Assembly (NCBI RefSeq): GCF_002113885.1
Contig: NW_018408761.1
Coordinates: 997,580 to 1,061,579, forward strand
DNA: 64,000 bases
Direction: 5' to 3'
Source of the DNA: Mizuhopecten yessoensis
Lineage: Eukaryota
In this document: positions 13,299 to 62,790 of the stretch, piece by piece
Numbering within the stretch: the stretch's first letter is position 1
Layout: the number at the start of each line of letters is the position of its first letter
Made by a program: the position numbers and the translations under genes
Notes under the pieces: generated by a model
Database searches by the model: none
The model's input: only the letters and a program-made list of their open reading frames with translations
Told to the model about the DNA's origin: nothing

Positions 13299-13845
13299 GT
13301 AATTAATGATTGAATATTAAGTCAGAACCATTATAAACATAATTGCATAGGTTTTTATTTATAAGTAATTACGTCTCAATATCATGTGTAAAATTATATT
13401 GGACACAAACAGTAACATCTACAGTTGCCCTGGGTAACCGATGTTGTGCAACATCTCGAGAAAGTTGTCTGTTGCTGTTGGAATATTGCTAGACTATATT
13501 ATTCTCTATGTAATTTTATCTGCTATATATGCATGAAGTTACTGATAATGATAATAATAAAACTACTCTGATATCTAGAGATATAGATACAATCAAATTT
13601 CAGTATCTGATTCTGTTTTCTAAACTTGATCATTCTCACCTTTCTGAAATTATTTAAATGTAATTTCGAATTATTGAACAAAATTTAATTATGTCTATAG
13701 TTAATATCTTAAGAAATATATACAATATACTTTCAGACCTATATCTATAGCTGACAGTGAAGATACAAAGGAAACATTTCAAATAATCAATCTTTGTCTG
13801 TAATGATTTGATTGTAATGTCTAATGCACTTTCTCTGTCGTACAG

Positions 13846-14029
13846 CACTTGTTTAAAGTACTCCGTTCCGAGTCCCATCTATGGGTGTCGCCTTCTCCTG
13901 GTATGTGAGGTGGCACTGGGCCGACAGTGTCCTTACACAAGTACTGACTACTCCCTCACAGCATCTCCCACTGGTTACCATAGCACCCATGGGGTCAAAA
14001 GGTCATCTGATGTCAACAGTCACTTTGAG
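13846..14029 (+). CDS. PARP4: PARP4-like exon 11 (PARP catalytic)
   Basis: Acceptor CTCTGTCGTACAG|. (S)TCLKYSVPSPIYGCRLLLVCEVALGRQCPYTSTDYSLTASPTGYHSTHGVKRSSDVNSHFE. Donor GAG|GTCAGT. Confidence 0.9.
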
Positions 14030-14403
14030 GTCAGTATGATATTTGATGTTAGTATGATATTTTATCTCAATCAGATGAGGTACAATTTACCTCTAACCTG
14101 TAAGCAAAATAATGATTATGTTTTTTTTCTATCATTCTGCTCAATTATGTTTTTTGGAGTCCCCTACTAGTACTAAGTGAAGGACTAAGATAGGTTTGCA
14201 ATTCATCTGTCCATCTGTCTGTCCTTTATGGGACCCTTTGCTTTTACTTCAAACCTTTAACTACAAATGTAGGACTAAATTTGTTCTTTGACCATGGAAA
14301 TGATAGTTCAAGTTATTCTTATATATTTAACTTTTTGCCTTTTATCTGGAAAATATCGGTTAAGATATTATCCTTGAATGTCTGTCCTTTAATTGTTGAC
14401 CAG

Positions 14404-14563: not shown

Positions 14564-14645
14564 GTAAGAGCTATATTTTTTACCATTTTTTCTCTTTTGG
14601 TCATCTAACAAATAGCAGTCAGGCACATATTTAACCCTTGTCAAT

Positions 14646-16213
14646 TTTTTAGGTCACCTGGTTGGATTTTTTTCAAACTTGGTCAGAATCATCCTTGGTA
14701 GATGAGGCTACAAAATTGTAAAATTGGGATTCCTACCCCAACCCCTGGGGCCAGGGCGGGGCCCCAAAGGGAAAATTAACCAATATTTCAAAAATCTTCT
14801 TCTTCAGACTCAGAGGTACTACATTTTCTCTACACGAAAAGAAAGATCATCAGTGGCTTTACTTAAATTGTAAATTTCAGGACCCCCAAGCTATCCGTTC
14901 TCCCTTGGGGAGGGGGTAAAGTTTACTATAGTTTATATAGGGAAATAACACTTTTGGGTATATTTTGACAACTTTCTGTAGGAAATTATTTTTACTTGGT
15001 GAGAATTATCCTTGGAGGTAGATGGTTTCAAATTGTAAAATTGAGATTCCTACCCCGACCCCTGGGGCCAGGGCGGGGCCCCAAAGGGAAAATTAATCAA
15101 TATTTCAAAAATCTTCTTCTCCAGACTCAGAGGTACTACAGTGATTTTCTCTACGTGGAAAGAAAGATCATCAGGGGCTTTACTTAAATTGTAAATTTCA
15201 GGACCCCCGAGCTATCCGTTCTCCCTTGGGGAGGGGGTAAAGTTTACTATAGTTTATATAGGGAAATAACACTTTTGGGTATATTTTGACAACTTTCTGT
15301 AGGAAATTATTTTTACTTGGTGAGAATTATCCTTGGAGGTAGATGGTTTCAAATTGTAAAATTGAGATTCCTACCCCGACCCCTGGGGCCAGGGCGGGGC
15401 CCCAAAGGGAAAATTAATCAATATTTCAAAAATCTTCTTCTCCAGACTCAGAGGTACTACAGTGATTTTCTCTACGTGGAAAGAAAGATCATCAGGGGCT
15501 TTACTTAAATTGTAAATTTCAGGACCCCCGAGCTATCCGTTCTCCCTTGGGGAGGGGGTAAAGTTTACTATAGTTTATATAGGGAAATAACACTTTTGGG
15601 TATATTTTGACAACTTTCTGTAGGAAATTATTTTTACTTGGTGAGAATTATCCTTGGAGGTAGATGGTTTCAAATTGTAAAATTGAGATTCCTACCCCGA
15701 CCCCTGGGGCCAGGGCGGGGCCCCAAAGGGAAAATTAACCAATATTTCAAAAATCTTCTTCTCCAGACTCAGAGGTATTACAGTCATTTTCTCTGCATGG
15801 ATGGAAAGATCACCAGGGGTTTTATTTAAATTGTAAATTTCAGGACCCCCGAGCTATCCGTTCTCCCTTGGGGAGGGGGTAAAGTTTACTATAGTTTATA
15901 TAGGGAAATAACACTTTTGGATATATATTTTATCCATTTTCAGCAGAAAATTACTCAAACTTAGTCAGAATCATCTTTGGTGAATGAGAGTATTACTTTG
16001 GGAATCCTGTCCCATCCCCAGGGGCTAGGGCGGGGCCCCAAAGGGAACATTTACCAATATTTTCAAATTCTTATCCTTTGATGTCATGACAAGTATTGTA
16101 TTTCACTTAGTTTACATGCTGATTTCCACTTCACATCTAAACAATAAAATAAAGCTACCAGTACCTATGATATAACTCAGGTGACCGCTAAGGCCCTTGG
16201 GCCTCTTGTTTTT
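14646..16213 (+). mobile_element. Composite non-autonomous element, family B, with internal 321-bp tandem array
   Basis: Head TTTTTAGGTCACCTGG (14646). Tail CTCAGGTGACCGCTAAGGCCCTTGGGCCTCTTGTTTTT (ends about 16213). Lies in intron 12. Confidence 0.7.
14680..16080. repeat. 321-bp tandem repeat, about 4.3 copies
   Basis: Two identical 63-codon ORFs and one variant copy start at 14996, 15317 and 15638, an exact 321-bp spacing. Partial diverged copies lie at both ends. Confidence 0.95.
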
Positions 16214-18652: not shown

Positions 18653-19404
18653 GGGCAGGTGAGCTAATGCCATGGCACAGCGTTCGTCGTTCTTCGTCCA
18701 TCCATCCATCAACTTTTCCTTTAAAACACTACTTGTCCTGAATGGCCTAGTAGATTTTGACTAAATTTGGTCTGGAGCATCTTTAGGCTAAGGGGACTCA
18801 ATGTTATATAAATGGTGGGTGTGGACTCCCTTGGGGCAGACGGGTGGGGACGAATAGGGGAAATTGAGGTAAAACATTTAAAATCCTTCTTCTACCATAG
18901 CAATTAAGGGATTATATCTTAATTTGGTCTGGAGCATCCTTGGACTAAGGGGACTCAATGTTGTATAAACGGTGGGTTTAGACCCCCTTGGGGCAGAGGG
19001 GTGGGGCCAAATAGGGGAAATAGAGGTAAACTTTTAATATATTTCTTTTACCATAGGGATCAAGGGATTTCATCCCAATTTATTTTTGGAGCATCCTTGG
19101 GCCAAGGGGACTCAATTTTATATAATTGGTGGGTTTGGACCTCCCTGGGGCAGAGTTGCATCACCCAATAGGGGAAATAGAGGTAAAAAACTTTGAAATC
19201 CTGCTTATACAATAGGGATCAATGGATTTCCGGGTGAGGCCTCTCTGGGTGCTGAGAGTTGCGGGGCCAAATAGGCAAAAGAGAAATTCGAGGTTTTAAT
19301 CTTTAAATTCTTTCTTCTTCTCCATTGGAGGGATTTTATGTAATAAAAATAATTTCCCATTATTGCTTTATTATCCAGGTGAGCGATACTGGGCCTCTTG
19401 TTTT
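18653..19404 (+). mobile_element. Composite non-autonomous element, family A (5'-truncated), with internal approximately 150-bp units
   Basis: Begins inside the head motif (GGGCAGGTGAGCTAATGCCATGGCACAGCG). There are 4 units of GGTCTGGAGCATCCTTGG.CTAAGGGGACTCAATGTT.TATAAA.GGTGGGT..GGAC.CCCTTGGGGCAGAG.GGTGGGGCCAAATAGGGGAAAT. Tail TCCAGGTGAGCGATACTGGGCCTCTTGTTTT. Confidence 0.6.
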
Positions 19405-19424
19405 ACTTTCAATTATCAACTCAG

Positions 19425-20122: not shown

Positions 20123-20570
20123 GTAAGATTATATAAACACCCATAACTGTCAACCCCTGCCTCATTAGGAGGAAGACCTCCTCATTTTGACCAAAATTTA
20201 CCAATTTCCCTCATTCAAGTCCAAACTCACACAAACGCAAAATCTACATCCTGTGGTCAAATGATCTCCTAGTTACTGCAGGGCGGTTGAGACGATCCTA
20301 ACAGGTATGTGTGAATCAAATGAAGTTTTTTTGGAGCTTATTTATTTGATGCATTAAAAGGGGAAAATAAATTGAGCAAATCAGTTTCTGTCATGTTTCA
20401 CACACTTTCCCCCTCGTTTGAAATGTGGAATGAGAGATCCCTGTCATTGGAGGTTTCAGAGGCTGACACCTACAAATACAGGGCAGACTTTTGTGTTCAT
20501 TCATGAGTCGTGGTGTATTTTGTTTTAATTGAATACTGTAAACATACACATTTTGGCAAACTTTTGATTT

Positions 20571-21494
20571 TTTAACTCACCTGCCCGAAGGGCAAGTGAG
20601 CTTATGCCATGGTGCGGCGTCCGTCGTCTGTCGTCCGTCTGTCCGGCGTCAACTTTTTACTTTAAACAACTTCTTTTCAGTAACCAAAAGGCCTAGGATG
20701 ATGATATTTGGCCAGTAGCATGCTGGGATGAAGGGCTACCAATTTTGTTCAAATGAATGACCTTGACCAATGTTCAAGGTCACAGGGGTCAAATGTCTTT
20801 AAATATTCAAACAACTTCTGCTCAATAACCAAAAGGCCCAGTGTACTGATATTGGGCCTGTAGCATGCTGGGATGAAGGACTGCCAAGTTTGTTCAAATG
20901 AATGACCTTGACCAACTTTCAAGGTCAAAGGGGTCAAATGTCTTAAAATCTTCAAACAACCTCTTCTCAATAACCAAAAGGCCAATGGAACTGATATTAG
21001 GCCTGTATCATGCTGGGATGAAGGGCTACCAAGTTTGTTCAAATAAATGACCTTGACCAACTTTGAAGGTCACTGGGGTCAGATGTCTTAAAATCTTCAA
21101 ACAACTTCTTCTCAATAACCAAAAGGCCCACGGTACTGATATTGAACCTGTAGCATGCTGGGATGAAGGACTACCAAGTTTGTTAAAATGAATGACCTTG
21201 ACCAATTTTCAGGGTCACAGGGGTCAAATGTCTTTAAATCTTCAAACGACTTCTTCTCAATAACCAAAAGGCCCAGGGTACTGAAATTGGACCTGTAGCA
21301 TGCTGGGATGAAGGACTACCAAGTTTGTTCAAATGAATGACCTTGACCAACTTTCAACCTAATGTCCTTGTTTGACAATCAAGGTCACAGGCATCATATG
21401 TTTAAATCTTTTAATAGGTTCTTATGAAATCTTATGATTACAAGTGTGAGATTAATACCAGGTGAGCGATGCAGGCCCATTGGGCCTCTTGTTT
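20571..21494 (+). mobile_element. Composite non-autonomous element, family A (ends TTAACTCACCTGCCCGAAGGGCAAGTGAGCTTATGCCATGG... / CCAGGTGAGCGATGCAGGCCCATTGGGCCTCTTGTTT), with internal approximately 120-bp units
   Basis: There are 6 units of ..AACAACTTCTTCTCAATAACCAAAAGGCCCA.GGTACTGATATTGGGCCTGTAGCATGCTGGGATGAAGG.CTACCAAGTTTGTTCAAATGAATGACCTTGACCAACTTTCAAGGTCACAGGGGTCAAATGTCTT. The termini are inverted (AGCTCACCTG / CAGGTGAGC). Confidence 0.7.
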
Positions 21495-33507: not shown

Positions 33508-33678
33508 ATGAACACTCAAGTTCAGAAGGCATGCCGTCCAGGTATTTCTGGTGTTAAAGTGGAGTGGCAGCAAAACATGGACACGACCAACAGACCTCTT
33601 CAGGCCCCTAATCACATCCCAAGTTTGTTTTCTGGGTCACGACAGGTCGTGTATGGCTTTGTACCTAACTGTACACAG
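33508..33678 (+). CDS. PARP4: PARP4-like exon 23
   Basis: Acceptor ATACTCTCCAG|. MNTQVQKACRPGISGVKVEWQQNMDTTNRPLQAPNHIPSLFSGSRQVVYGFVPNCTQ (compare vertebrate ..VSVKWQQ...LQAPAQVPSLF...LLVYGFIPHCTQ). Donor CAG|GTGAGA. Confidence 0.9.
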
Positions 33679-35760
33679 GTGAGAATTTTTATTACACTGA
33701 TGTGCTGGTAAGCAGGGGTTCAACTAGTTATATCTTTGTATGGCTTTGTACCTAACTGCACACAGGTGAGAATTTTTATTACACTGATGTGCTGGTAAGC
33801 AGGGGTTCAACTACTCCCCTCGGTAGGGACAAGTTATATCTTTGTATGGCTTTGTACCTAGCTGTACACAGGTGAGACTTTGTATTACACTGATGTACTG
33901 GTAAGCAGGGGTTCAACTACTCACCTCGTTAGGGACAAGTTATATCTTATCTTTGTATGGCTTTGTACCTAACTGTACACAGGCGAGAATTTTTATTACG
34001 AGGATGTGCTGGTAAGCAGGGGTTCAACTACTCGCCTCGTTAGGGACAAGTTATATCTTTGTATGGCTTTGTACCTGAATTTAGGCAGGGGAGGCTTTGT
34101 ATTACACTGATGTGCTGGTAAGCAGGGGCTCAACTACTCACCTCGGTAGGGACAAGTTATATCTTCATATGGCTTTGTACCTAACTGTACACAGGTGAGA
34201 ATTTTTATTACGAGGATGTGCTGGTAAGCAGGGTTTCAACTACTCACCTCGGTAGGGACAAGTTATATCTATGTATGGCTTTGTACCTAACTGTACACAG
34301 GTGAGACTTTTTATTACGAGGATGTGCTGGTAAGCAGGGGTTCAACTACTCCCCTCGGTAGGGACAAGTTATATCTTTGTATGGCTTTGTACCTGAATTT
34401 AGGCAGGGGAGGCTTTGTATTACACTGATGTGCTGGTAAGCAGGGGTTCAACTACTTATTTCTGGTGTTAAAGTGGAGTGGCAGCAAAACATGGACACGA
34501 CCAACAGACCTCTTCAGGCCCCAAATCACATCCCAAGTTTGTTTTCTGGGTCACGACAGGTCGTGTATGGCTTTGTACCTAACTGTACACAAGTGAGAAT
34601 TTTTATTACGAGGATGTGCTGGTAAGCAGGGTTTCAACTACTCACCTCGGTAGGGACAAGTTATATCTTCATATGGCTTTGTACCTAACTGTACACAGGT
34701 GAGAATTTTTATTACACTGATGTGCTGGTAAGCAGGGGTTCAACTACTCCCCTCGGTAGGGACAAGTTATATCTTTGTATGGCTTTGTGCCTAACTGTAC
34801 ACAGGTGAGACTTTGTATTACACTAATGTGCTGGTAAGCAGGGGTTCAACTACTCACATCGGTAGGGACAAGTTATATCACGCTTTATATCTAGATAAAA
34901 TAAAACGAGTTCATTACAAAGATGACCGGACAAAAAATGATGTATTCAATATCAATATCAATATTGATATATCTTTGTATGGCTTTGTACCTAACTGTAC
35001 ACAGGTAAGACTTTGTATTACACTGATGTACTGGTAAGCAGGGGTTCAACTACTTACCTCGTTAGGGACAAGTTATATCTTTGTATGGCTTTGTACCTAA
35101 CTGTGCACAGGTGAGACTTTGTATTACACTGATGTGCTGGTAAGCAGGGATTCAACTAGTTATATCTTTGTATGGCTTTGTACCTAACTGTACACTGGTG
35201 AGACTTTGTATTACGAGGATGTGCTGGTAAGCCGGGGTTCAACTACTCACCTCGGTAGGGACAAGTTATATCTATGTATGGCTTTGTACCTAACTGTACA
35301 CAGGTGACACTTTGTATTACGAGGATGTGCTGGTAAGCAGGGGTTCAACTACTCCCCTCGGTAGGGACAAGTTATATCTTTGTATGGCTTTGTACCTAAC
35401 TGCACACAGGTGAGAATTTTTATTACACTGATGTGCTGGTAAGCAGGGGTTCAACTAGTTATATCTTTGTATGGCTTTGTACCTAACTGCACACAGGTGA
35501 GAATTTTTATTACACTGATGTGCTGGTAAGCAGGGGTTCAACTAGTTATATCTTTGTATGGCTTTGTACCTAACTGCACACAGGTGAGAATTTTTATTAC
35601 ACTGATGTGCTGGTAAGCAGGGGTTCAACTAGTTATATCTTTGTATGGCTTTGTACCTAACTGTGCACAGGTGAGACTTTGTATTACACTGATGTGCTGG
35701 TAAGCAGGGGTTCAACTACTCACATCGGTAGGGACAAGTTATATCACGCTTTATATCTAG
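33543..35760 (+). repeat. Minisatellite (about 86-110 bp unit, about 19 copies) seeded from the last codons plus 5' splice site of exon 23; includes a 136-nt second copy of the exon 3' part at 34457-34592
   Basis: Each unit starts with TATGGCTTTGTACCTAACTGTACACAG|GTGAGA (YGFVPNCTQ plus donor). It continues with ATTTTTATTACACTGATGTGCTGGTAAGCAGGGGTTCAACTAC(TCACCTCGGTAGGGACAA)GTTATATCTTTG. Confidence 0.9.
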
Positions 35761-43925: not shown

Positions 43926-44738
43926 CAACAAAAAATCTTGGATTTCAACAGTTCAGTTTGTTGTCACTTTTTCCCATAAAGTCCTTAAACAATAAGCATT
44001 GTACTAGTAAATAGGTAAAACAACCAGCTCGCTTTGAAAGAACAGTGTCATACACAGCAGAATGAAGGCTTTGCTCAAAAGTTACCACAATTAAGGTGCG
44101 TTACTGTTAACGTGACTCAATCTTACAGATAAGAGAGAAAAGAAGAATCTTACATAGAATCTATGAAGATAATAAGAATAATATCTTTTATTTAACCAGG
44201 GTTACATATTTAGACAATGTCTAGTTTACAATATGGCGCTGAAGCAAACTATATATACAAGCATGACAACAATTTAAGATAACAGTATAACACTGCAGTA
44301 TATGGTATCATCACAGTCAATGTAACTTGAAGTTAAGTAATCCTAAATTAGAATTTAATAGTGAACACTTGCATATCACACGAGTGTTACTGAATGATAT
44401 GGTTAAAGCATAGTCAAATATACATAATATGTTAATATGGCAAAGCGTAAAAAATGACAAGATATACACCAATTAGTCCAATATAGTGTGTATTAAAATG
44501 AGACAAAGAAGTCGGTGGTGTGAAAAATAATAATTTATGATAGAAATATGATGGTACGATAGTCGGTGTCAAGGTCCCCCGGGGATCTCTTGTTTTAAAA
44601 GACAGAAAGATGTGAAAATGAAAATAAAGCATTAATGGGGAAAATAAAACACGAACTGCTAAAGAGGTTAATGTCGTTTTCTTTAAGGCAGTGGCCAATC
44701 ATATCGTCCACAGTCATATCTAAAAGCAGATCTATGCT

Positions 44739-46463
44739 TTTTAGCTCACCGGCCTGAAGGGCAAGTGAGCTTATGCTATGGCGCGGCGTCAGGCATCCGT
44801 CATCTTTTCCTAAAAAACGCTACTTGTCATAAACGACTGAGCAGATTTTGACCAAATTTGGTCAGAAGCATCCTTATGGGAAGGGGAACAAATTTTGTAT
44901 AAATGGTGGGTCTGGCCCCCTAGGGGCTGAGGGGTGGGGCCCAATAGGGAAAATATAGCAAATTCTTTAAAATCCTTCTTCTTTTGTAGGAATAAAAGGA
45001 TTGGTTCCATATTTGGTCTGAAGCATCCTTGGGGGAAGAGGAACCAATTTTGTATAAATGGGGGGTCTGGCCCCTGAGGGGCCTGAGCGACAGGCCAAAT
45101 AGGGGAAACATAGCAAATTCTTTAAAATCCTTCTTCTGTAGGAATGAAAGGATTTGTTCCATATTTAGTCTTAAGCATCCTTGGGTTAAGGGGAACCAAT
45201 TTTGTATAAACTGTGGGTCTGGCCCCTTTGGGGCCTGAGCGACGGGGCCCAATAGGGGAAACATAGCAAATTCTTTAAAATCTTTCTTCTGCAGGAATGA
45301 AAGGATTTGTTCCATATTTGGTCTGAAGCATCCTTGGGTGAAGTGGAACCGATTTTGTATAAGCAAGGGGTCTAGCCCCCATGGATCTGAGGGGCGGGGC
45401 CAAAAGGGGTCAATTGCGCTATATTGATTTAAGCGACTTCTTCTCTGGAACTAAGAGATGGATATCAACCATATTTGACTGGAAGCATCCCTCTGTAGTG
45501 GAGATTCACAATTGTACAAATGGTTGGGCTGACATCCCAGGGGGCTGAGGTGCGGGTCCAAAAGGGCGCAATTTGGCTATATTGGTGTACGACTTCTTCT
45601 GTAGCATTATACCATGGATATCGATCATATTTGGTCAGAAGCTTTCATGGGAAGTAGGGATTCAAAATTGTACAAATGGTGGGGCTGACCCCCCGTGCTA
45701 AGGGGTGGGGCCAAAAAAAGTTTATTACTTGGAAATGGTTGAGATCCCAACCATATAACCATATATATAATTGTGGAGTATGAAGAGAAGCATTCACATT
45801 TGCTTCAAGGATGGCCTAGGGTCTGGCCCCACCCTTTGAGACATAGTCCCTGGGTCATATCTTTGAAACGATTGAGATCCGCACCCCAGAACTATATATA
45901 CAAATGCTTGGCATAAAGAGACAAAAGTAGTCATGGTATTAAAATAGACCCTGGGGTCTGACCGAACCCCTAGGGACCTAGTTTCTTAGTCACAGCTTCG
46001 AAACAGTTGAGATCCCCACCCTATAACTATGCATATATACAATTGCTGAGTATAAAGAGATGAATGCACATATGCTTCCAGGATGGCCTTGGGGTCTGCC
46101 CAAACTTTGCAGACTTAACCCCTGGGTAAATATAACTTTGAAACAGTTGAGATCCCCACCCCAAGACTATAAATACAAATGCTAGACAAAAAGAGACGAA
46201 TATAGTCATGATATTATAATTGATCCTGGCGTCTGGCCACAACCCGAGGGATCTAGTTTCTGAGTCACAGCTTGGAAACAGTTGAGATCCCCACCCCATT
46301 ACCATACATTAAATTGCTGGGCATGAAAAATCTAATACAGACATACTACAAGAATTGACATTGGGGTCTGGCATATACCCTTGGATCTCATTTGGAGAAT
46401 ATTTTGCTTTTTGATTGCTTAGATATTCAGGTGAGGAATTCAGGCCCTCTGTGCCTCTTGTTT
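44739..46463 (+). mobile_element. Long family A composite element (three different internal tandem arrays), ending about 130 bp upstream of exon 31
   Basis: Head TTTTTAGCTCACCGGCCTGAAGGGCAAGTGAGCTTATGCTATGGCGCGGCGTC. Internal arrays of about 120 bp (44860-45400), about 165 bp (45400-45720) and about 150 bp (45720-46320). Tail TTCAGGTGAGGAATTCAGGCCCTCTGTGCCTCTTGTTT. Confidence 0.7.
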
Positions 46464-46593
46464 ACCATAAGAATACATCATATTTGATTGAGAGGATGTG
46501 CTTTTAGAGGTGGCAGCTGTTTTGATACAACGTTATGTGAGGGCATGAGTTAGCCTCTATATAACAATTGTATTTTTTTTCTATATTCTTCAG

Positions 46594-46694
46594 ATCTGGA
46601 GTATAATGCTGTCTTCCTGTTACCAAGGCTGCGAGGGGGACTTAGTTTTGGTCTCAAGGAAGATTTGAAAACAAAGCGTATTCTCGCGGAAAAC
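46594..46694 (+). CDS. PARP4: PARP4-like exon 31 (ubiquitin-like domain C-terminus with RLRGG)
   Basis: Acceptor TTTTCTATATTCTTCAG|. (D)LEYNAVFLLPRLRGGLSFGLKEDLKTKRILAEN. RLRGG is at 46626-46640. Donor AAC|GTATGA, phase 0. Read-through of the donor gives V then TGA. Confidence 0.8.
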
Positions 46695-46777
46695 GTATGA
46701 TATGACAATAAGACATAAAATGTGGATTCCACTCTCAAAAATCTAAGGGTGGGGTAGAAAGTGGTTTATTGGACATT

Positions 46778-48637
46778 TTTAGCTCACCTGCCCGAACGGC
46801 AAGTGAGCTTATGCCATGGCGCGGCGTCCAGCATCCTTCAACTTTTCCTAAAAATCGCTACTAGTCATAAACGACTGAGCAGATTTTGACCAAATTTGGT
46901 CAGAAGCATCCTTATGGGAAGGGGAACAAATTTTGTATAAATGGTGGGTCTGGCCCCCCTGGTGGCTGAGGGGTGTGGCCCAATAGGGAACACATAGTAA
47001 ATTCTTTAAAATCCTTCTCCTTCTGTAGGATTGAAAGGATTTGTTCCATATTTGGTCTGATGCATCCTTAGAGAAAGAGGAACCAATTTTGTATAAACCG
47101 TGGGTCTGGACCCCGAGGGGCCTGAGGGGTGGGGCCCAATAGGGAACACATAGTAAATTCTTTAAAAACCTTCCTCTTCTGTAGGAATGAAAGGATTTGT
47201 TCCATATTTGGTCTGAAGCATCCTTAGGGAAAGAGGAACCAATTTTGTATAAACCGCGGGTCTGGCCCCCGAGGGGCCTGAGGGGTGGGGCCCTATAGGG
47301 ATCACATAGTAAATTCTTTAAAATCCTTCCTCTTCTGTAGGAATAAAAGGATTTGTTCCATATTTAGTCTGAAGCATCCTTGGGTAAAGGGGAACCAATT
47401 TTTTATAAACCATGGGTCTGGCCCCACAGGGGCCTGAGCGACGGGGCCCAGTATGGGAAACTGAACAATTTCTTTAAAATCCTTCTTCTCTGTAGGAATG
47501 AAAGGATTTGTTCCATATTTGGTCGGAAGCATCCTTCGGTGAAGGGGAACCAATTTTGTATAAACAAGAGGTCTGGCCCCCAGGAACTTGAGGGGCGGGG
47601 CCAAAAGGGGGCAGTTGCGCTATATTAATTTAAGCGACTTCTTCTCTGGAACTAAGGGATAGATATCAACCATATTTGACTGAAAGCATCCCTCGGAAGA
47701 GGAGATTCAAAATTGTACAAATGGTTGGGCTGACCCCCCGTGCTAAGGGGTGAGGGTTGCTATTAACGACTTATTCTGTAGAATTATGCTAAGGATATCA
47801 ATCATATTTGGTCAGAAGTATTCATGGGAGGTAGGGATTCAAAATTGTACAAATGTTTGGGCTGACCCCCCTGTGCTAAGGGGTTGGGCCAAAAAAGGTT
47901 TATTACTTGGAAATGGTTGAGATCCCCGCGGTATAACCATATATACAATTGTGGAGTATAAAGGGAAGCATGCACATTTGCTCCCAGGATGGCCTAGGGT
48001 CTGGCCCCACCCTTTGAGACATAGTCCCTGGGTCATAACTTTGAAATGATTGAGATTTCCACCCCAGAACTATATATACAAATGCTTGGCATATAGAGAC
48101 AAAAGTAGTCATGGTATTAGAATAGACCCTGGGGTCTGACCGAACCCCTAGGGACCTAGTTTCTTAGGCAAAGCTTCGAAACAGTTGAGATCCCCACCCT
48201 ATAACCATGCATATATACAATTGCTGAGTATGAAGAGATGATTGCACATATGCTTCCAGGATGGCCTTGGGGTCTGCCCCACCCTTGCAGACTTAACCCC
48301 TGTGTCATAACTTTGAAACAGTTGAGATCCCCACTTTAAAACTATATACAAATGCTGGGCTTAAAGAGAAGAAACCAGTCATGATATTAAGAATTGATCC
48401 AGGGGTCTGGCCACAACCCTAGGGATCTAGTTTCTGAGTCACAGCTTGGAAACAGTTGAGATCCCCACCCCATAACCATACATTAAATTGCTGGGCATGG
48501 AAAATCTAATACAGACATACTACAAGAATTGGCATTTGGATCTGGCATATTCCCTTGGATCTCATTTGGAGAATATTTTGCCATGATTGCTTAGATATCC
48601 AGGTGAGCGATTCAGGCCCTCTGGGCCTCTTGTTTTT
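46778..48637 (+). mobile_element. Long family A composite element, starting about 84 bp downstream of exon 31
   Basis: Head TTTTTAGCTCACCTGCCCGAACGGCAAGTGAGCTTATGCCATGGCGCGGCGTC. Same array order as 44739-46463. Tail TCCAGGTGAGCGATTCAGGCCCTCTGGGCCTCTTGTTTTTT. Confidence 0.7.
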
Positions 48638-48765
48638 TAAATCTACTCTTCATGAATGATAGGTTTCTTCAGTACCTTTAAATTGTGAATGCAATTACCC
48701 TGATGTCTCCCATTCACCACTGGGAAGGGGGAAATTCTGCTACATTTCCTATGGTTATAACAGCT

Positions 48766-50481
48766 TTTAGCTCACCTGGTCCGAAGGACCAGGGTGAGCT
48801 TATGCCATACCATGGCATCCGTCGTCCGTACGTACGTCAACAATTTCTTTAAACGACTTCTTCTTCTTAACCACTGGTTGGAATTAAACTAATTTTGACT
48901 GGAAGCATCCCTAGGTGGTTGGGATTCAAAATTGTACAAATGGTGGGGCTGACTCCCCAGGGGGCTGAGGGGTGGGGCCAAAAGGGGTCAATTTGCCCAT
49001 ATTGCTGTAAGCGACTTCTTCTCTGGAACTAAGAATTGGATATCAACCATATTTGACTGGAAGCATCCCTAGGTGGTGGTGATTAAAAATTGTACAAATG
49101 GCGGGGCTGACTCCCCAGGGGGCTTAGGGGGGGCCAAAAGGGGGCAATTTTGCTATATTGCTACAAACGACTTCTTCTGTAGAACTGTGCACTGGATATC
49201 AATCATATTTGATCAAAAGCATTCCTGGGAGGCAGGGATTTAAAATTGTACAAATGGTGTGGCTGACCCCCCAGGGGGCTGAGGGGCAGGGCCAAAAAGG
49301 GTATTTGGCTATACTGCTTTAAGTGACTTCTTCTCTGGAACTAAGTGATGGATATCAACCTTATTTGACTGGAAGCATCTCTAGGTGGTGGAGATTCAAA
49401 ATTGTACAAACGGTTGGGCTGACCCCCCAGGGGGCTGAGGGGCGGGGCCAAAAGGGGGCAATTTGGTTATATTGCTATAAATGACTTCTTCTGCAGAACT
49501 ATGCCATGGATATTGATCATATTTGGTCGGAAGTATTCATGGGAGGCAGGGATTCAAAATTGTACAAATGGTGGGGCTGACCCCCCGGGCTAAGGGGTGG
49601 GGCCAATAAAATGTATTACTTGGAAATGGTTGAGATCCCCACCATATAACCATATATACAATTGCTGAGTATAAAGAGAAGAATGCACATTTGCTTCCAG
49701 GATGTCCCTAGGGTCTGGCCCCACCCTTGGAGACATAGTCCCTGGGCCATAACTTTAAAACGGTTGAGATCCCCACCCCAAAACTATATATACAAATGCT
49801 GGGCATAAAGAGACGAATGCAATCATGATATCAGAATAGACCCTGGGGTCTGACCGAACCCCTAGGGACCTAGTTTCTTAGTCACAGCTTGGAAACAGTT
49901 GAGAGCCCCACCCTATAACCGTATATATACAATTGCTGAGTATAAAGAGATGATTGCACATATGCTTCCAGGTTGGCCTTGGGGACTGCCCCACCCTTGG
50001 AGACTTAACCCCTGGGTCATAACTTTGAAATGGTTAATATCCCCACCCCAAAACTATATATACAATTGTTGGGCATAAAGAGACGAATGCAGTCATGACA
50101 TTAGAATTGATCCCAGGGTCTGCCCCACCCTTGCAGACTTGGCCCCTGGGTCATAACTTTGAAACGGTTGAGATCCCCACACCAAAACTTTATATACAAA
50201 TGCTTGGCAAAAAGAGACAAATGCAGTCACGATATTAGAATCGATCCTGGGGTCTGGCCACAACTCTAGGGACCTAGTTTCTGAGTCAAAGCTTGGAAAC
50301 AGTTGAGATCCCCACCCCATAACCATACATAAAATTGCTGGGCATGAAAAATTTAATATAGCTATGCTACAAGGATTGGCCTTGGGGTCTGGCATATTCT
50401 CTTGATCTCATTTGGAGAATAGTTTGCCATGATTGCTTAGGTATCCAGGTGAGCGATACAGGCCCTCTGGGCCTCTTGTTT
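48766..50481 (+). mobile_element. Long family A composite element (third consecutive copy)
   Basis: Head TTTTAGCTCACCTGGTCCGAAGGACCAGGGTGAGCTTATGCCATACCATGGCATCCGTCGTC. Tail TCCAGGTGAGCGATACAGGCCCTCTGGGCCTCTTGTTT. Confidence 0.7.
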
Positions 50482-50554
50482 ATTTATCCTCAGCAGAAAA
50501 TAATTCAGTTCAATTTTTGTTATGGCATGGCATCGATATAGAATCTATTTTAGT

Positions 50555-51060
50555 TGTTGTACAACATAAAGATTTGTGGTTAAATTCTAAGCTATGAGAT
50601 ATGAAGTCTCTCTTACTCACCGGTACTCAGTATAACATGAAGATTTGTGGTTAAATTCTTAGCTATGAGATATGAAGTCTCTCTTACTCACCGGTACTTA
50701 GTATAACATGAAGATTTGTGGTTAAATTCTTAGCTATGAGATATGAAATCTCTTTTACTTGCTGTATAACATGAAGATTTGTGGTTAAATTCTTAGCAAT
50801 GAGATATGAAATCTCTTTTACTTGCTGTATTATATGGAGATTTGTGGTTATATTCTCAGCTATATGATATAGAATCTCTTTTACTTGGTGTATAATATGG
50901 AGATTTGTAGTTATATTCTCAGCTATATGATATAGAATCTCTTTTACTTGCTGTATAACATGTAGATTTGTGGTTAAATTCTCAGACATGTGATATAGAA
51001 TATCCTTTACATGGGGAAAATATGAAGTTTGTTGGTAAATTATTAGCTATTTTTAGTGAA
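50555..51060. repeat. 62-71-bp minisatellite, about 8 copies, 170 bp upstream of exon 32
   Basis: The (A/G)AGATTTGTGGTTAAATTCT.AGCTATGAGATATGAA.TCTCT.TTACT.. units are spaced 71, 71, 63, 62, 65, 63 and 62 bp apart. This generates ORF 50684-50989 (-). Confidence 0.9.
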
Positions 51061-51232
51061 CATTGATTAATCAGCCTTAATATTTTTACTTTTGTCAGTT
51101 AAACTATATTTAGTCACTATACTCAATGTAAACTTCTTAATAATACCCACAAAAACCACAGAAGCAATGATTCATGAGTTTACTATTGTACAGTACAGGT
51201 ACATGTGAAGTATTAACATTTCTGTATTTCAG

Positions 51233-51459
51233 GACATGAATGAGTATGATCAGATATATGGTAAGAAGGTGCATACGGAAAAGGACAAAAGCTGTACTGA
51301 TGATGGAAAAAACCCGGTGAAGATGTCCTCATTGTTTTCTCCTTTTAGGCAATCCTTACGAATGATGGCTCCAAGGAAACAGTTAGCAACCAAAGCTGCC
51401 AGAAAATCTGCACCTGCAAACTTTGATGAAAATGAGGAGGAGCAGAATGAGGATGACAG

Positions 51460-51497
<38 letters not shown>

Positions 51498-54313
51498 TTG
51501 AAAAGATGGGCAACTTTAGCTGCATGGCACTTCCAGATGACAACGTGGTTGATGATGCTACGAACAAGAAACAGGAAGTGTCAGATGTAGGAAGAATACC
51601 AGACTCTCCACTCTCAGCAACACAGTTTGGCCCCTTGTCTCCAAAATGTTCAGATTCATTTGGTACAAACTTTGAAAAATTTGAAATCTCTCAGTATTTA
51701 GATGAAGACATGGAGATTGATTTAGATACTGAAGACCCGGCATTCCTCATTCTCACTTCTGAAATATCTGACATATTTTCACCTTCAATGGCAGGCCATT
51801 CTCAGGACACTCCAGCCTATATATCAACCTCCCCATCTTACAAACCAACTTCCCCATCCTATTCGCCCACTTCCCCATCTTACAAACCAACTTCCCCATC
51901 CTATTCGCCCACCTCCCCATCTTACAAACCAACTTCCCCATCCTATTCGCCCACCTCCCCATCTTACAAACCAACTTCTCTATCCTATTCGCCCACTTCC
52001 CCATCTTACAAACCAACTTCTCCATCCTATTCACCAAATAGAAGAGCACGAAGAGCCAAATCAACATTTGAGGATTTCCAACATGAATCAACATCAAACA
52101 ATAAAGATTTTGTGGTTTCAGGTTCAAGACAAGCAAAGTCAAGCAGCACATCTAGTGAACATGGTTTGTGTGGAGCTCCAGTGCAAGCAGAACCAGGCAG
52201 TAAACCAAGTCAGAGCTTCAATTTTAATGCTTCGCTACAAACAGCATCAAGCAATGAACCAACACAAAGTTTGGGATTGGGGGCTCCAAACCTAGCAGAA
52301 CTAGGCGGTAAACCAAGTCAGGGGTTCAATTTTAGTGCTCCTCTAGTAACAGCATCAAGAAATATATCAACACAAAGTTTGGGATTGGGGGCTCCAAACC
52401 TAGCAGAACCAAACACAATGCCAAGTCAAGGGTTTTCCTTTGGAGCTCGAATGCAAACAACTCAAAGCGCTTCACCAGCCGAAGGTTTCAGTTTTTCTCA
52501 GAATCAAACATTGCAGAGCATTACCAGTAAAGGAAGCCATTGTTTTGGATTTGGGACTTCAAAACCAGCCGGAGCAAGCAGAACGACAAGTCAAGGGTTT
52601 TCCTTTGGCGCTCAAATGCAGTCCCAACGATGCAATATACCAACCCAAGATTTCTATTTTGGAGCTTCAAATTCAGCAGGTTTTGGAGATGACGGTGACA
52701 GACGTGGTGGTTATGGAGGTGTCAGTGTTAGACCTGGTGGTTATGGAGATGACAGTGACAGACGTGGTGGTTATGGAGGTGTCAGTGTTAGACGTGGTGG
52801 TTATGGAGGTGTCAGTGAGGGACTTGGTGGTTATGGAGGTGTCAGTGTTAGACGTGGTAGTTATGGAGGTGACAGTGTTAGATGTGGTGGTTATGGAGGT
52901 GTCAGTGAGGAATGTGGTGGTTATGGAGGTGTCAGTGAGGGACTTGGTAGTTATGGAGGTGTCAGTGAGGGACTTGGTAGTTATGGAGATGACGGTGTCG
53001 GACGTGGTGGTTATGGAGATGACAGTGTCGGACGTGGTGGTTATGGAGGTGACAGTGTCGGAGGTGATGGTTATGGAGGTGTCAGTGAGGGATTTGGTGG
53101 TTATGGAGGTGACAGTGAGGGATGTGGTGGTTATGGAGGTGTCAGTGTTAGATGTGGTGGTTATGGAGGTGTCAGTGAGGGACGTGGTGGTTATGGAGGT
53201 GACAGTGAGGGACGTGGTGGTCCTAGACTTGCTGGTTCTAAAGATGGACATGTTTCTTACATAGAAACAGCACCAACATTTACATATTTGAAGGATCTTG
53301 ACTTGAATTTAGCAAAACATGATCCAAAAACTAGGATATTGAAGGAAAATGACAGAAGACCTTCCAGTGTAACAGAGAAGGATCTGCCTTCACAGCCTTT
53401 CAGACATGTACAGGATAAAATGTTCCCACCAGACTTTGATGAATCCTTATTACCTAAACAAAAGAGAAAAATTCCTCCTGTTGGAAGAGGAGGTTCTGGA
53501 TTCACTGCAAGGAATGACCAGGGTCCTGCTGAAACAACCAAAGAACAAGGTCGAAGGTCATTAAAGTCAGTCAGAGGCGCAATGCATGGTGCAAGATCAA
53601 GAGACAGAAATAGGGAACAATCTCGTGAGCTTATTGTGCTGGATAAGAGTAAAAAACTAAGTTTGAGTCATGACAGAAGGCGGAGGAGTTTGAGTAGAAG
53701 TTTGAGTCGAGACAGAAGACAGAGGAGTTTGAGTAGAAGTTTGAGTCGAGACAGAAGGCGGAGGAGTTTGAGTAGAAGTTTGAGTCGAGACAGAAGGCGG
53801 AGGAGTTTGAGTAGAAGTTTGAGTCGAGGAAGGGGGAGAAGAGACTTGGAAAGATGTTACAGTAGAGATAGAGCAAGAAAGGAAAATAAAAAAATGCACA
53901 GATCAAGTGGAAATAATGATACAAACAGTAGGAATAAAAATAGGGACAAAGCAGGAAGCAAAATAGACAGAGATCCTGCAAGAGAAAGTAAGAAACAGAT
54001 AAAGCATAAAAATGAAAAGAAGGAGCAAACAAAGGCTGATGAACAGGTTGTCAAAACATTTGGGAAAAAAGGGAAGAAAAGGGAACAGACAAGGGATGAT
54101 GAAGAGATTGTCAAAACTGGAGGGAAGAACCTGTCAGGAAAGTTGGAATATGATGATCATGAGAAAATGGACTTTACAGTGGACATGGCACCAACTTTGA
54201 AAGTCTGGGATGTAACATCAGAGACAGGCAAGGACATTGTGAAATTCATAAAGTATATTTCTGATTCAATCTTCTTTTATATACAAAAGATCTGTAATTT
54301 TCTACAAATTCAA
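51233..54313 (+). CDS. PARP4: PARP4-like exon 32: 3081-nt low-complexity exon (H3-tail copy, poly-Asp, CTD-like heptads, FG-like, GGYGG, RS and Lys-rich modules)
   Basis: Acceptor TTCTGTATTTCAG| with phase 0 from exon 31. Single open frame of 1027 codons (the track ORF 51236-54337 is the same frame). Donor CAA|GTGAGC after ..KICNFLQIQ (compare vertebrate PARP4 ..SCFLQIK..). An alternative weaker donor is ATCT|GTAATT after 54293. Confidence 0.8.
51368..51418 (+). other. Histone H3 tail copy: [17 protein letters not shown] (identical to H3 residues 15-31)
   Basis: Direct translation of GCT CCA AGG AAA CAG TTA GCA ACC AAA GCT GCC AGA AAA TCT GCA CCT GCA in the exon 32 frame. Confidence 0.9.
51461..51496 (+). 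repeat. (GAT)12 coding microsatellite, poly-Asp tract
   Basis: Twelve uninterrupted GAT codons within [18 protein letters not shown]. Confidence 0.95.
51824..52039 (+). repeat. RNA polymerase II CTD-like heptad array (42-bp two-heptad unit, about 10 heptads)
   Basis: [72 protein letters not shown]. Confidence 0.9.
52214..52687 (+). other. FG-nucleoporin-like segment
   Basis: SFNF, GFNFS, GFSFG, GFSFS, CFGFG, GFSFG, FYFG and AGFG motifs, separated by uncharged S/T/Q/N/A/G/P-rich spacers. Includes a 34-aa duplicated unit ([20 protein letters not shown]). Confidence 0.7.
52700..53221 (+). repeat. 30-bp coding tandem repeat, about 17 copies of the decapeptide (R/L/C)GGYGG(V/D)S(V/E)(R/G)
   Basis: [50 protein letters not shown]...[14 protein letters not shown]. 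Other frames on both strands stay open across it because of the repeat. Confidence 0.9.
53657..53833 (+). repeat. 42-bp coding tandem repeat, 4 copies of [14 protein letters not shown] (RS-domain-like)
   Basis: [62 protein letters not shown]. Confidence 0.9.
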
Positions 54314-54344
54314 GTGAGCTTAAGTGAACTTTCTTGATTAGCTT

Positions 54345-54975
54345 GTAATGATATACAGTCCTGCAGTAAAACTTGTCTAAGAACTCACCTGTCTAAATCA
54401 TCTTGTAGTGTTACAGTCCTACAGTAAAACTTGTCTTAGAACTCACCTGTCTAAATCATCTTGTAATTATATTTATACAGCCCTACAGTAAAACTTGTCT
54501 AAGAACTCACCTGTCTAAATCATCTTGTAATTATATATATACAGTCCTACAGTAAAACTTGTCTTAGAACTCACCTGTCTAAATCATCTTGTAATTATAT
54601 ATATACAGCCCTACAGTAAAACTTGTCTAAGAACTCACCTGTCTAAATCATCTTTTAGTGTTACAGCCCTACAGTAAAACTTGTCTAAGAACTCACCTCT
54701 CTTAATCATCTTGTAATTATATATATACAGTCCGACAGTAAAACTTGTCTTAAAACTCACCTGTCTAAATCATCTTTTAGTGTTACAGCCCTACAGTAAA
54801 ACTTGTCTAAGAATTCACCTGTCTAAATCATCTTGTAGTGTTACAGTACTACAGTAAAACTTGTCTAAGAATTCACCTGTCTAAATCATCTTGTAGTGTT
54901 ACAGCCCTACAGTAAAACTTGTCTAAGAACTCACCTGTCTTAATCATCTTGTAATTATATATATACAGTCCTACA
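54345..54975. repeat. 57-65-bp minisatellite, about 10 copies, starting about 30 bp after the exon 32 donor
   Basis: CCTACAGTAAAACTTGTCT(A/T)AGAACTCACCTGTCTAAATCATCTTGTA(GTGTTACAG / ATTATATATATACAG) repeated. Confidence 0.9.
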
Positions 54976-55605
54976 GCATTTCATGTCTCAGAATCGATTT
55001 GTGTAAACCAACTTGTGTCCATGTTATATTTCATGGTAATCTCAAAATCCAAGATGGTTGCCCTTAGTTATCCTTTTCATTGGGTAAAACCCTTCCTCTG
55101 AGACATTTTCAATTTTTGTATACTAGAAAATGTTTCTTATGTGAAACTCAAATAATGTTGTTACTTTTCATGACAAAAATACAAGATAGCCACCAATGGC
55201 TCCGATTTGCAGACAGTTGCTATTTCTCTATAACAGTAGCAATTGACTTCTAACTAATCTAAATGATTCAAATTTAATGTTCCTGTATTGTTTAAAAAAA
55301 ATGTAATTCATGTGAGCGTTAAAGCTTATTTCGTTTCTTGTTATTATACATATATCTACACTGTCCATAACAACCAAATGCATGCTCAAGGAAAGGCTAA
55401 CTGTTAAAACAGAATCTGATGTCATGCACTTTTTTCCCATATTGATCATTAAGTTTCATTCAACAAACCTTAATCGTTGGATATGGAAAAAATATCCTAG
55501 AATAGATAACAAACTACAGTTTAGAAGTATCATAAATCATTTGGTATATCTAGAACATCTAATTAAAAAGAAAAGAGAATAATAACATTTGTTCTATTGT
55601 TACAG

Positions 55606-55640: not shown

Positions 55641-55733
55641 GTATGACAATGTTGAAGTTGGACTGTCTAAAGAAATATTAAACTTACTTATTGAAGAAAT
55701 GAAGAAAACTATTAAGAAAATCAATTTTGTGGT

Positions 55734-56228
55734 TTTTAGCTCACCTGGCCCCTTGGCCCATGCCGTGGTGCGGCATCCGGCGTCAATATTTTACTTTAAA
55801 CAACTTCTCAATAACCAAAAGGCCCTAGGTACTGATATTGGGCCTGCAGCATGCTGGGATGAAGGGCTACCAAGTTTGTTCAAATGAATGACCTTGACCC
55901 ACTTTCAAGGTCACAGGAGTCAAATATCTTAAAATCTTCAAACAACTTCTTCTCAATAACCAAAAGGCCCAGGGTACTGATATTGGGCCTGTAGCATGCT
56001 GGGATGAAGGGCTACCAAGTTTGTTCAAATGAATGACCTTGACCCACTTTCAACCCAATATCCTTGTTCGACATTCAAGGTCACAGGCGTCATATGTTTA
56101 AATCTTGTAATAGGATCTTATGAATCAAACACTGATATTCTGCCTGTAGCTGTATTTTAGTCCACTCTTAAGATTACAAGTGTGAAATAATACCAGGTGA
56201 GCGATGCAGGCCCATTGGGCCTCTAGTT
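55734..56228 (+). mobile_element. Family A composite element, about 94 bp after exon 33
   Basis: Head TTTTTAGCTCACCTGGCCCCTTGGCCCATGCCGTGGTGCGGCATCC. About 120-bp units as in 20571-21494. Tail ACCAGGTGAGCGATGCAGGCCCATTGGGCCTCTAG. Confidence 0.65.
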
Positions 56229-56956
56229 TTTAGGTCACTTGAGCTTAAGCTCAATTGACCTATTGTTATCCGTCTTTGTCCGTCGTCTTCCGTCGTGCGT
56301 CGTCAGTCGTGTGTCGTCATTTTACATTTTCAACTTAAGCTGAAATACTGGCAAAGGGATTTCATTAATATTTCATGGGAAGTTTACTGACATTTTCCAG
56401 ACAAAGTGTTAATATTTTTCGGGTCAATCAGAAATCCAATATGGCCACCACGTCTGCTATTTTGAAAAACTATTTCAAACTTAAAGTCAAGTTCTGCTAA
56501 GCCGATTGAACTGAAACTTTGTCGGAATGATCGACTCATGGTCCTGACAAAGTATTGTTATTTTTCGGGTTGATCCGAAATCTGATATGGCCGACATGGC
56601 CGCCATTTTGAAAAACTCTTTCAAACTTAAAGTCAAGTTCTACTGGGCCGATTGAACTAAAACTTAATAGGAATGATCGACTCATGGTCCTGACAAAGTG
56701 TTGTTATTTTTCGGGTCGATCAGAAATCCAATATGGCCACCAAGGCCGCCATTTTGAAAATAACTATTTCAAACTTAAAGTCAAGTTCTGCTAGGCCGAT
56801 TTAACTGAATCTTTTTAGGAATTATTGACTCATGGTCCTGACAAACTTAAGTTAACGTTATACTTAACTATTTTTTACTCAAATTGGTACATATTTCAAC
56901 AACAAAAATAAATACTGTAGGACTCGGGTGACCGTTAAGGCCCATGGGCCTCTTGT
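56229..56956 (+). mobile_element. Family B composite element directly abutting the previous element
   Basis: Head TTTTTAGGTCACTTGAGCTTAAGCTCAATTGACC. About 131-bp units, about 3.5 copies. Tail CTCGGGTGACCGTTAAGGCCCATGGGCCTCTTGTT. Confidence 0.65.
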
Positions 56957-57305
56957 TATAATTATGTTTTAAGTACAATAATGCATACAGAAGTATTTTG
57001 TTTTCTTTTATTATCTTTTAGGATAGCTATTTAAATGTTTTGTTCATGAGTAACTGTAATGGAAACCAGCCTTCAGGAGAATATTCTCTTATTTATTTGC
57101 TTTTTATTACAAGGGCTTCTGTATACCACTAGGTATCCTCCTTAAACCTAGAAGAAGAATGTAATACTTCGATGTATAATGGATATTCGATTTCTACACT
57201 TGATTTCAACTCATTAATTATTGGAAACATTACAGAATTCTGCTGCTGATATATCACACATTAAATCAAATTGAATTAAATTTGAATGCAAAATTCACTT
57301 TCAGT

Positions 57306-62689: not shown

Positions 62690-62790
62690 GGGTCGATCTC
62701 GGCGACCAGGTAGCTCAGTTGGTATAGCGTCCGTCAAGAGTTCGGAGGTACTAGGGTTCGAACCCCAGTCTGGCCGTTGCATTTCAGACT
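62690..62790 (+). mobile_element. tRNA-derived SINE head (not a functional tRNA)
   Basis: GACCAGGTAGCTCAGTTGGTATAGCGTCCGTCAAGAGTTCGGAGGTACTAGGGTTCGAACCCCAGTCTGGCCG has A-box and B-box-like motifs. However, the D, anticodon and T stems are mismatched and position 33 is not T. Confidence 0.5.

Follow-up and report, generated by a model that had tools for sequence, protein, structure and literature searches.

The sequence described here is a 64,000-nucleotide stretch of the scallop Mizuhopecten yessoensis (contig NW_018408761.1, positions 997,580 to 1,061,579, forward strand), hereafter the window, whose first nucleotide is position 1 throughout. It is eukaryotic, with a G+C content of 37%, and its + strand carries a PARP4-like gene. 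A match to the PARP catalytic domain (Pfam) lies in an exon fragment at 13787-14167 (+), and a VIT domain, the homologues of which carry the annotation poly(ADP-ribose) polymerase, is encoded by exons at about 19.6-22.1 kb (+); in a protein search these VIT-domain exons returned PARP/VIT fragments at identities of 84% or less. Two adjacent introns of this gene hold three repeat-rich blocks, E1, E2 and E3. These are very probably separately inserted copies of a non-autonomous Helentron (HINE) of the pearl/CvA family, a group of transposons known from bivalves for the tandem repeats that they carry.

Between E1 and E2 lies a candidate 101-bp coding exon. A preliminary description of this DNA, made from the letters alone, had placed the exon at 46594-46694 in the gap between the first two elements, and this position holds, the gap being a 313-bp spacer unique in the window. 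The acceptor, with 14 of 16 pyrimidines plus CAG, is the best in the spacer, and the donor is fixed at the GT at 46695 because an in-frame TGA at 46698 closes the open frame, which leaves this GT as the sole usable one. The boundaries first proposed are thus the only consistent ones. The candidate remains unconfirmed by homology, its peptide finding no match among solved structures. Its core splice signals are undisturbed by the two elements, since E1 ends 130 bp upstream and E2 begins 82 bp downstream. The intron that follows the exon measures about 4.5 kb, of which E2 and E3 together make up about 3.6 kb; intron growth is the visible effect of the elements on the host.

The three elements are built from the same series of parts (Table 1). 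A run of four to five T residues is followed by the 11-nt 5′ subterminal inverted repeat (subTIR) AGCTCACCTGG, a short loop with a complementary inverted repeat (IR), AGTGAGCT or GGTGAGCT, the sequence GCTTATGCCATGG and a (GTCN)n microsatellite tract. Then come the tandem arrays, about 30 nt of unique sequence, the 3′ subTIR CCAGGTGAGCG, the palindrome AGGCCC-TCT-GGGCCT and a terminal CTTGTTT. The block coordinates given in the preliminary description prove right to within the T-runs at the junctions, and the inverted termini AGCTCACCTGG / CCAGGTGAGCG that it reported are borne out. Its shared head, TTTTAGCTCACCTG...GCAAGTGAGCTTATGCCATGG, is exact in E2, carries two substitutions in E1, and in E3 retains the subterminal repeat around a different loop (GCCATACCATGG). 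Its shared tail, CCAGGTGAGCGAT.CAGGCCCTCTGGGCCTCTTGTTT, occurs unaltered in E2 and E3, whereas in E1 mutations affect the repeat (GAGGAAT) as well as the palindrome (GTGCC). Six matches to the tail motif were found against 0.00 expected in shuffled sequence, and six to the head motif against 0.08.

Table 1. Elements, their parts and neighbouring features in the window (a tilde marks approximate positions)
Feature	Position	Strand	Remarks
E1, complete but decayed HINE/CvA copy	44738-46463	+	Head, tail and array maps
E1 T-run	44738-44742
E1 5′ subTIR	44743-44752		AGCTCACCGG, one substitution
E1 IR	44764-44771		AGTGAGCT
E1 GTCN tract	~44782-44808		Degenerate
E1 A/B array	44852-45718
E1 C array	45738-46414		Monomers c1-c5
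E1 3′ subTIR	46428-46436		CAGGTGAGG, mutated
E1 palindrome region	46442-46456		Broken (GTGCC)
E1 CTTGTTT	ends 46463
Spacer 1, unique, 313 bp	46464-46776	.	No similarity to other flanks or rest of window
Candidate coding exon, 101 bp	46594-46694	+	..LEYNAVFLLPRLRGGLSFGLKEDLKTKRILAEN; same strand as PARP and VIT exons
E2, intact-looking HINE/CvA copy	46777-48638	+	Head, tail and array maps
E2 T-run	46777-46781
E2 5′ subTIR	46782-46791		AGCTCACCTG
E2 IR	46802-46809		AGTGAGCT
E2 GTCN tract	~46820-46845		Degenerate
E2 A/B array	46890-47903
E2 C array	47916-48584
E2 3′ subTIR	48599-48609		CCAGGTGAGCG
E2 palindrome	48614-48628		AGGCCCTCTGGGCCT
E2 CTTGTTT(TTT)	ends 48635-48638
Spacer 2, unique, ~126 bp	48639-48764	.	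Flank and window comparisons
E3, HINE/CvA copy, sister sub-type without A array	48765-50481	+	Termini, array maps, primer match 50448-50468
E3 T-run	48765-48768
E3 5′ subTIR	48769-48779		AGCTCACCTGG
E3 IR	48793-48800		GGTGAGCT; compensated longer stem GGTCC/GGACC
E3 microsatellite	~48815-48838		CCGTCGTCCGTACGTACGTC
E3 B array	48890-49608
E3 C array	49629-50430
E3 3′ subTIR	50445-50455		CCAGGTGAGCG
E3 palindrome	50460-50474
E3 element end	50481
H3, 5′-truncated HINE	18653-19405	+	Left flank and A-like monomers homologous to E1/E2; putative donor type for 5′ half of chimera
H4, complete HINE	20569-21494	+	Same subTIR family as E1-E3, clean (GTCY)n, 145-bp array; reference for intact flanks
H13 abutting H14, head to tail	55733-56958	+	H13 55733-56229, H14 56227-56958; common T5 run
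Twelve HINE tails	6849, 16174, 19373, 21456, 26941, 37089, 43123, 46425, 48597, 50443, 56191, 56922	+

In E2 and E3 the placement of these parts is asymmetric, a distance of 4-5 nt separating AGCTCACCTGG from the 5′ end and one of about 26 nt separating CCAGGTGAGCG from the 3′ end; each repeat bears one substitution in E1. Together, the 5′ subTIR and the neighbouring IR form DNA hairpins with energies of -8.7 to -13.9 kcal/mol (z -2.7 to -5.2). Pairing is preserved although the inner stem reads TGCC/GGCA in E2 and GGTCC/GGACC in E3. The (GTCN)n tract is clear in E3 (CCGTCGTCCGTACGTACGTC) and in two further elements of the window, H4 and H14, and is eroded in E1 and E2 (GGCGTCCAGCATCC). The palindrome stands 7 nt from the end of E2 and E3; one is present at the same position in other tails (nine on one count, seven elements on another) and in three scallop contigs introduced below. 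E1 looks immobile, because its palindrome is broken and both of its subterminal repeats carry a substitution. The longest open reading frames (ORFs) inside E1-E3 are read-through of the repeats and belong to no Pfam family, the one sub-threshold match (E 0.0055) falling below the cut-off. ARAGORN and Rfam gave no match inside the elements; a tRNA-derived short interspersed element (SINE), which calls for a tRNA-related head and pol III boxes, is accordingly rejected.

This anatomy contains every testable structural feature that defines HINEs, including the Cg_HINE elements of oysters. These features comprise a lack of coding capacity, subTIRs of 11-15 nt (the 5′ one only a few nt inside the terminus), a complementary short IR within 1-22 nt, a GTCY-type microsatellite, central repeats and a 3′ palindrome. 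The definition further names insertion at TT or T-rich sites without target-site duplication, to which the T-run junctions described below would correspond, and an autonomous Helentron with the same termini elsewhere in the genome. The pearl/CvA elements, formerly described as tandem-repeat-containing MITEs (miniature inverted-repeat transposable elements) of bivalves, have since been reclassified as Helentron-associated. A canonical Helitron is rejected: the termini are a T-run with AGCTC... and ...CTTGTTT rather than TC and CTRR, and subTIRs are present.

The copies can be tied to the scallop CvA lineage because of a primer match, the monomer sizes and tail matches in Pecten maximus. The primer AGAGGGCCTGTATCGCTCACC, which was designed on CvA of Chlamys farreri and applied to Adamussium colbecki (PMC5874043), corresponds over all 21 nt to the reverse complement of positions 50448-50468 in E3, and has one mismatch to E2 and three to E1. 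The same study gives scallop CvA monomers of 156 bp and dimers of 312/314 bp, sizes that the B array shows as well. A 36-nt tail pattern was found in three contigs of the metagenome NSIT01, from Pecten maximus gill (L001 650-685, L002 1582-1617, L003 1360-1395), each with a different flank after the tail, and two of the three carry related monomers at 72-78% identity. The gill was infected with Endozoicomonas, but the DNA of the three contigs probably belongs to the scallop host and not to bacteria. The tail gave no match in a scan of viral contigs, and a search of literature text with the head and tail strings returned unrelated primer matches only. The family named in the preliminary description, that of pearl and other tandem-repeat-carrying, Helentron-associated non-autonomous elements of bivalves, is therefore correct on two counts, the HINE anatomy and the CvA primer match.

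The interior of each element consists of tandem repeats that always face the same way with respect to the flanks, mapped with Tandem Repeats Finder (TRF) and nhmmer using a profile of the 156-bp monomers. E1 reads A-A-A-T-B2-B′ followed by five C monomers (c1-c5), and E2 reads A-A-A-A-T-B2-B′, with an internal deletion in B2 and one A more than E1, followed by its C monomers, c1-c5 as in E1. E3 reads B1-B2-B1-B2-B′, built on a 312-bp dimer, followed by six C monomers (c1-c3, an extra hybrid, c4 and c5). The expectation of up to three array types in constant order, with E3 starting at the second (B) type, is thus confirmed. The "identical architecture" ascribed to all three applies to E1 and E2, which are 90.7% identical and differ by a single 157-bp monomer indel; E3 lacks the A array and has another variant of the left flank.

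C monomers are 134 bp long and unrelated to A and B. The monomer denoted T (E1.4/E2.5) is an A/B hybrid, A-like over its first ~95 nt and B1-like thereafter, and is 90% conserved between E1 and E2. The partial monomer B′ is cut at the same point (~95-104 nt) in all three copies, and the B-to-C junction is 92-94% identical among them. Monomers at orthologous positions are 87-95% identical between copies, whereas C monomers that adjoin one another in a single copy share only 58-83% identity. The composite therefore moved as a ready-made unit, same-position monomers being closer across copies than neighbours within one. The exception is E2.2/E2.3, a pair 95% identical, and this recent duplication explains the extra 157 bp of E2. 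By these comparisons, the layout of the arrays is older than the three copies, each composite having been copied whole without growth in place. Private substitutions in the common 3′ module amount to 3.9% in E1, 3.3% in E2 and 5.7% in E3; the insertions are old and of about the same age.

The repeats themselves have relatives in oysters. Monomers of the A and B types and of the element H3 align with the CL1/Cg170 monomer of Crassostrea gigas, which Cg_HINE elements carry, at z 7.7-12.8 (A/B 9-13), with 75-82% identity over the aligned columns, and a D145 monomer does so at z 6.8. Neither C nor E146 monomers align with CL1 (z ~0.2-0.3). By monomer homology, A and B belong to the Cg170/HindIII (BIV160-type) satellite family of bivalves.

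How three related blocks came to stand in a row can be read largely from their edges. E1 and E2 are homologous from 44738/46776 as far as 46463/48635, where the likeness breaks off exactly. Smith-Waterman alignment of 128-200 bp of flank to each side gave six comparisons, all at shuffle level (z -0.65 to 1.35); both spacers occur once in the window. The preliminary description had left two routes open, independent insertion in the same orientation or segmental duplication of an element with its flank, and separate insertion is the one supported, as homology is confined to the elements and the flanks are unrelated. A segmental (tandem) duplication would account for the common orientation, the similar size and the close spacing of the blocks, but elements that are 88-91% identical would have left similarly identical flanks. 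With homology ending exactly at the element termini, all six flank comparisons at noise (z <=1.35) and both spacers unique, this route is rejected as very improbable. An assembly artefact, in which one array or two haplotypes were laid out as three blocks, might be suspected in so repetitive a region, and bivalve assemblies are prone to haplotype duplication. Yet no block lacks a complete head or tail of its own, divergence between blocks amounts to 9-22%, particular indels set them apart (the extra A in E2, the deletion in E2.6, the extra hybrid C in E3), and the spacers are unique and unrelated, unlike those of a haplotype duplication. A single misassembled array, the contrary case named at the outset, is thereby ruled out, and an artefact of either kind has almost no probability left. 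The junctions also bear on the class of transposon. They were inspected for target-site duplications, as had been proposed, and consist of T-runs (3-6 nt), other direct repeats being absent, which suggests insertion into oligo-T without target-site duplication. Cut-and-paste MITEs with a 2-bp AA/TT target-site duplication, as pearl and DTC84 were first read, would likewise have an inverted repeat close to each end and be bordered by T residues, which the early literature took for the duplication. However, the repeats are subterminal, lie at unequal distances from the two ends and are followed by a palindrome, the T-run varies in length, and the elements bear the Helentron signature for which the family was reclassified; a MITE is highly unlikely.

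A local origin deserves more weight, although it too is the unlikely course. Here, one resident copy would have given rise to the others by re-insertion close by, or else a compound unit with the 5′ end of E1 and the 3′ end of E2 would have moved. E1-E3 are consecutive and the sole elements of the window with a C array and this right-flank sub-type, E1 and E2 are mutually closest (90.7% overall, ~92% averaged over five C monomers), composite transposition has a published precedent, and the mutated 3′ signals of E1 would favour read-through to the intact end of E2. However, the 3-6% private divergence and the nearly star-like three-way pattern fit a dispersed sub-family equally well, E3 is of a different sub-type with a different left flank, and the window contains neither spacer 1 nor the candidate exon a second time, as exon capture might have left them. 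Separate insertion of pearl/CvA-type HINEs thus remains the preferred account, and some observations weigh against it. The absence of a target-site duplication is read from the junctions only. The C array with its right-flank sub-type occurs only in E1-E3 among at least 12 HINEs, and these three are adjacent, an arrangement with an estimated chance of ~3% if sub-types were scattered randomly; the insertions may therefore not be independent draws from distant donors. The 3′ palindrome has a stem of 6 bp and an unexceptional energy (z ~-1), its role resting on conservation across copies. Finally, no Rep/helicase ORF is seen in the window, and mobilisation in trans is taken from the literature. 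The common orientation, for its part, is not special to E1-E3, as every HINE in the window is so oriented.

The elements encode nothing and, under the published Helentron/HINE model, would be mobilised in trans by the Rep-helicase-endonuclease of an autonomous Helentron. Likely cis-acting signals at the 5′ end are the T-run and the subterminal inverted repeat with its adjacent complementary repeat, which would form a stable hairpin; those at the 3′ end are probably the inverted repeat, the short palindrome and CTTGTTT. Integration would proceed into oligo-T with no target-site duplication. The internal arrays are passengers, their monomers being old, position-specific variants. The sub-types probably arose by recombination. 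The left flank and A monomers of E1 and E2 are homologous to H3, and the left flank of E3 runs directly into B monomers. We infer that T marks a single exchange joining an A-type front to a B-C-type back, which would make E1 and E2 chimeric. The E1/E2 type would then derive from the E3 type by in-register recombination with an H3-like element carrying an A array, the exchange taking place inside homologous 156-bp monomers and leaving the hybrid T at the joint. Later and small changes would be the doubling of a monomer in E2, the gain of a hybrid C monomer by E3 and the terminal decay of E1.

E1-E3 belong to a larger population. At least 12 elements with a recognisable tail and several degraded arrays are present, and HINE-derived DNA makes up ~24% of the window. 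A second subTIR family, with 5′ AGGTCACCTG and 3′ CAGGTGACC, is represented by the elements at 6441-6887, 14645-16213 and 56227-56958. It differs from the first (AGCTCACCTG/CAGGTGAGC) by one distinguishing base, changed complementarily at both ends. At the H13/H14 junction (56225-56231, ..GGGCCTCTAGTTTTTAGGTCACTTG..), elements of different subTIR families meet, one inserted in the terminal T-run of the other. The 3′ T-run of an element can thus serve as the next target, which offers a route to composites. Three further tandem arrays were noted. One of 2 kb at 33650-35736, with 106/87-bp units, contains CAGGTGAG and, about 55 nt on, CTCACCTC, an inverted pair resembling HINE subterminal repeats; this array could be derived from element termini. 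Another at 54311-54976, with 58/122-bp units that contain AACTCACCTGTC, like the HINE 5′ repeat, has in front of it, at 54311, the IR-like sequence CAAGTGAGCTTAAG and follows directly on the stop of the open frame at 51209-54334. The third, eight copies of a 63-bp unit at 50535-51050, lies between E3 and that frame and is unrelated to the arrays of E3.

Without exception, the 12 tails and the 41 A/B-superfamily monomers lie on the + strand, which is sense for the PARP4-like gene; two of the tails are downstream of the last ORF of that gene. The two-sided binomial probability of 12/12 on one strand is ~5e-4. Target asymmetry was considered and rejected as the cause: the share of oligo-T among oligo-T and oligo-A targets is only 58-61% (158:116 runs in non-HINE sequence), which gives ~0.002 for 12/12 and is insufficient. 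Avoidance of cryptic exons found no support, with 14 sense and 15 antisense acceptor-donor pairs as scored by approximate, human-derived splice matrices. Neither accounts for the complete strand bias, and selection, transcription-coupled integration and replication-coupled integration are inseparable from one window. It is conceivable, but rather doubtful, that Helentron-type elements integrate or survive in one orientation only relative to host transcription or replication. As an equally speculative corollary, E1-exon-E2, with the 3′ signals of the upstream copy damaged, might be the arrangement expected before a read-through (compound) transposition that carries the exon away; a compound Helitron in bats captured host DNA from a geometry like this one.

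Beyond the elements, a 1042-codon open frame at 51209-54334 (+), 730 bp downstream of E3, strings together look-alikes of low-complexity modules. It holds a poly-Asp run, about ten heptads resembling the C-terminal domain (CTD) of RNA polymerase II, FG-type GFSFGA/GFNFSA repeats, 18 decapeptides, another repeat type and a K/E-rich tail, as well as a 17-residue stretch that we take to be identical to residues 15-31 of histone H3. The frame has no Pfam family, and a protein search with it returned RPB1 proteins only, CTD matches swamping the list, and no orthologue. Upstream of the PARP4-like gene, a 474-codon open frame at 1230-2651 (-) contains an SDSDSDSD run and has no Pfam match. ARAGORN reports a tRNA-Ser(AGA)-like sequence at 62703-62777 (+), which may represent either a tRNA gene or a tRNA-derived SINE, of which it would be the head.

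In annotation, about 5.3 kb of this locus is to be masked as CvA/pearl-type HINE, which also accounts for its satellite-like arrays. E1-E3 are new copies, perhaps of a new three-array sub-type, of a known transposon family. They illustrate two published ideas, that arrays travel in Helentron derivatives as fixed, ordered units and that composites arise by in-register recombination, and they extend work on oysters and clams to a scallop while leaving the existing picture unchanged. The strand bias is the only observation that may be of wider import.

Among known systems, canonical Helitrons share with E1-E3 a 3′ hairpin near the end, the absence (apparent in E1-E3) of a target-site duplication and a presumed rolling-circle mobilisation, but they have the form 5′-TC...CTRR-3′ and insert between A and T, whereas the present elements have an oligo-T target and subterminal inverted repeats. 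The DINE-1/HINE elements of Drosophila, mites and mosquitoes (Thomas et al. 2014, PMC4067079) agree in architecture, in TT or T-string boundaries, in central repeats and in being non-coding. They have no sequence similarity to E1-E3, and their partner Helentrons were identified (PMC4067079), while none is present in the window. DTC84 of the clam Donax trunculus (Satovic and Plohl 2013, PMC3879986), read at the time as a MITE with an AA target-site duplication, differs in its unrelated flanks and in its single array of at most five repeats.

The likeness is closer to Cg_HINE of Crassostrea gigas (Vojvoda Zeljko et al. 2020, PMC7492417), especially Cg_HINE_10_13 and Cg_HINE_11_12. The order of modules is the same (5′ subTIR, IR, GTCY-type microsatellite, tandem repeats, 3′ subTIR, palindrome), insertion is at T-rich sites, in E1-E3 too apparently without target-site duplication, and the monomers are related to Cg170/HindIII satellite DNA. 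Some Cg_HINEs even contain two consecutive arrays, related in 10_13 and unrelated in 11_12. The species and the flank sequences differ, and the monomers are of 156 and 134 bp here against 138-181 bp there. Cg_HINEs are reported to have one and exceptionally two arrays, where E1 and E2 have three (two related, one unrelated), and to occur in both orientations, where the elements of the window occur in one only. Closest of all is CvA/pearl of scallops (Gaffney et al. 2003; PMC5874043), with copies from Chlamys farreri, Pecten maximus, Mizuhopecten and Adamussium colbecki. E1-E3 share its 3′ flank, identical to the primer in E3 (21/21), its 156-bp core monomers and 312/314-bp dimers, its subterminal inverted repeats and its tetranucleotide microsatellite, although the literature writes the element on the opposite strand. 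As far as the available text goes, CvA/pearl is described with one core array of two to six monomers, whereas E1-E3 combine two or three consecutive array types, joined in E1 and E2 by an A/B hybrid monomer.

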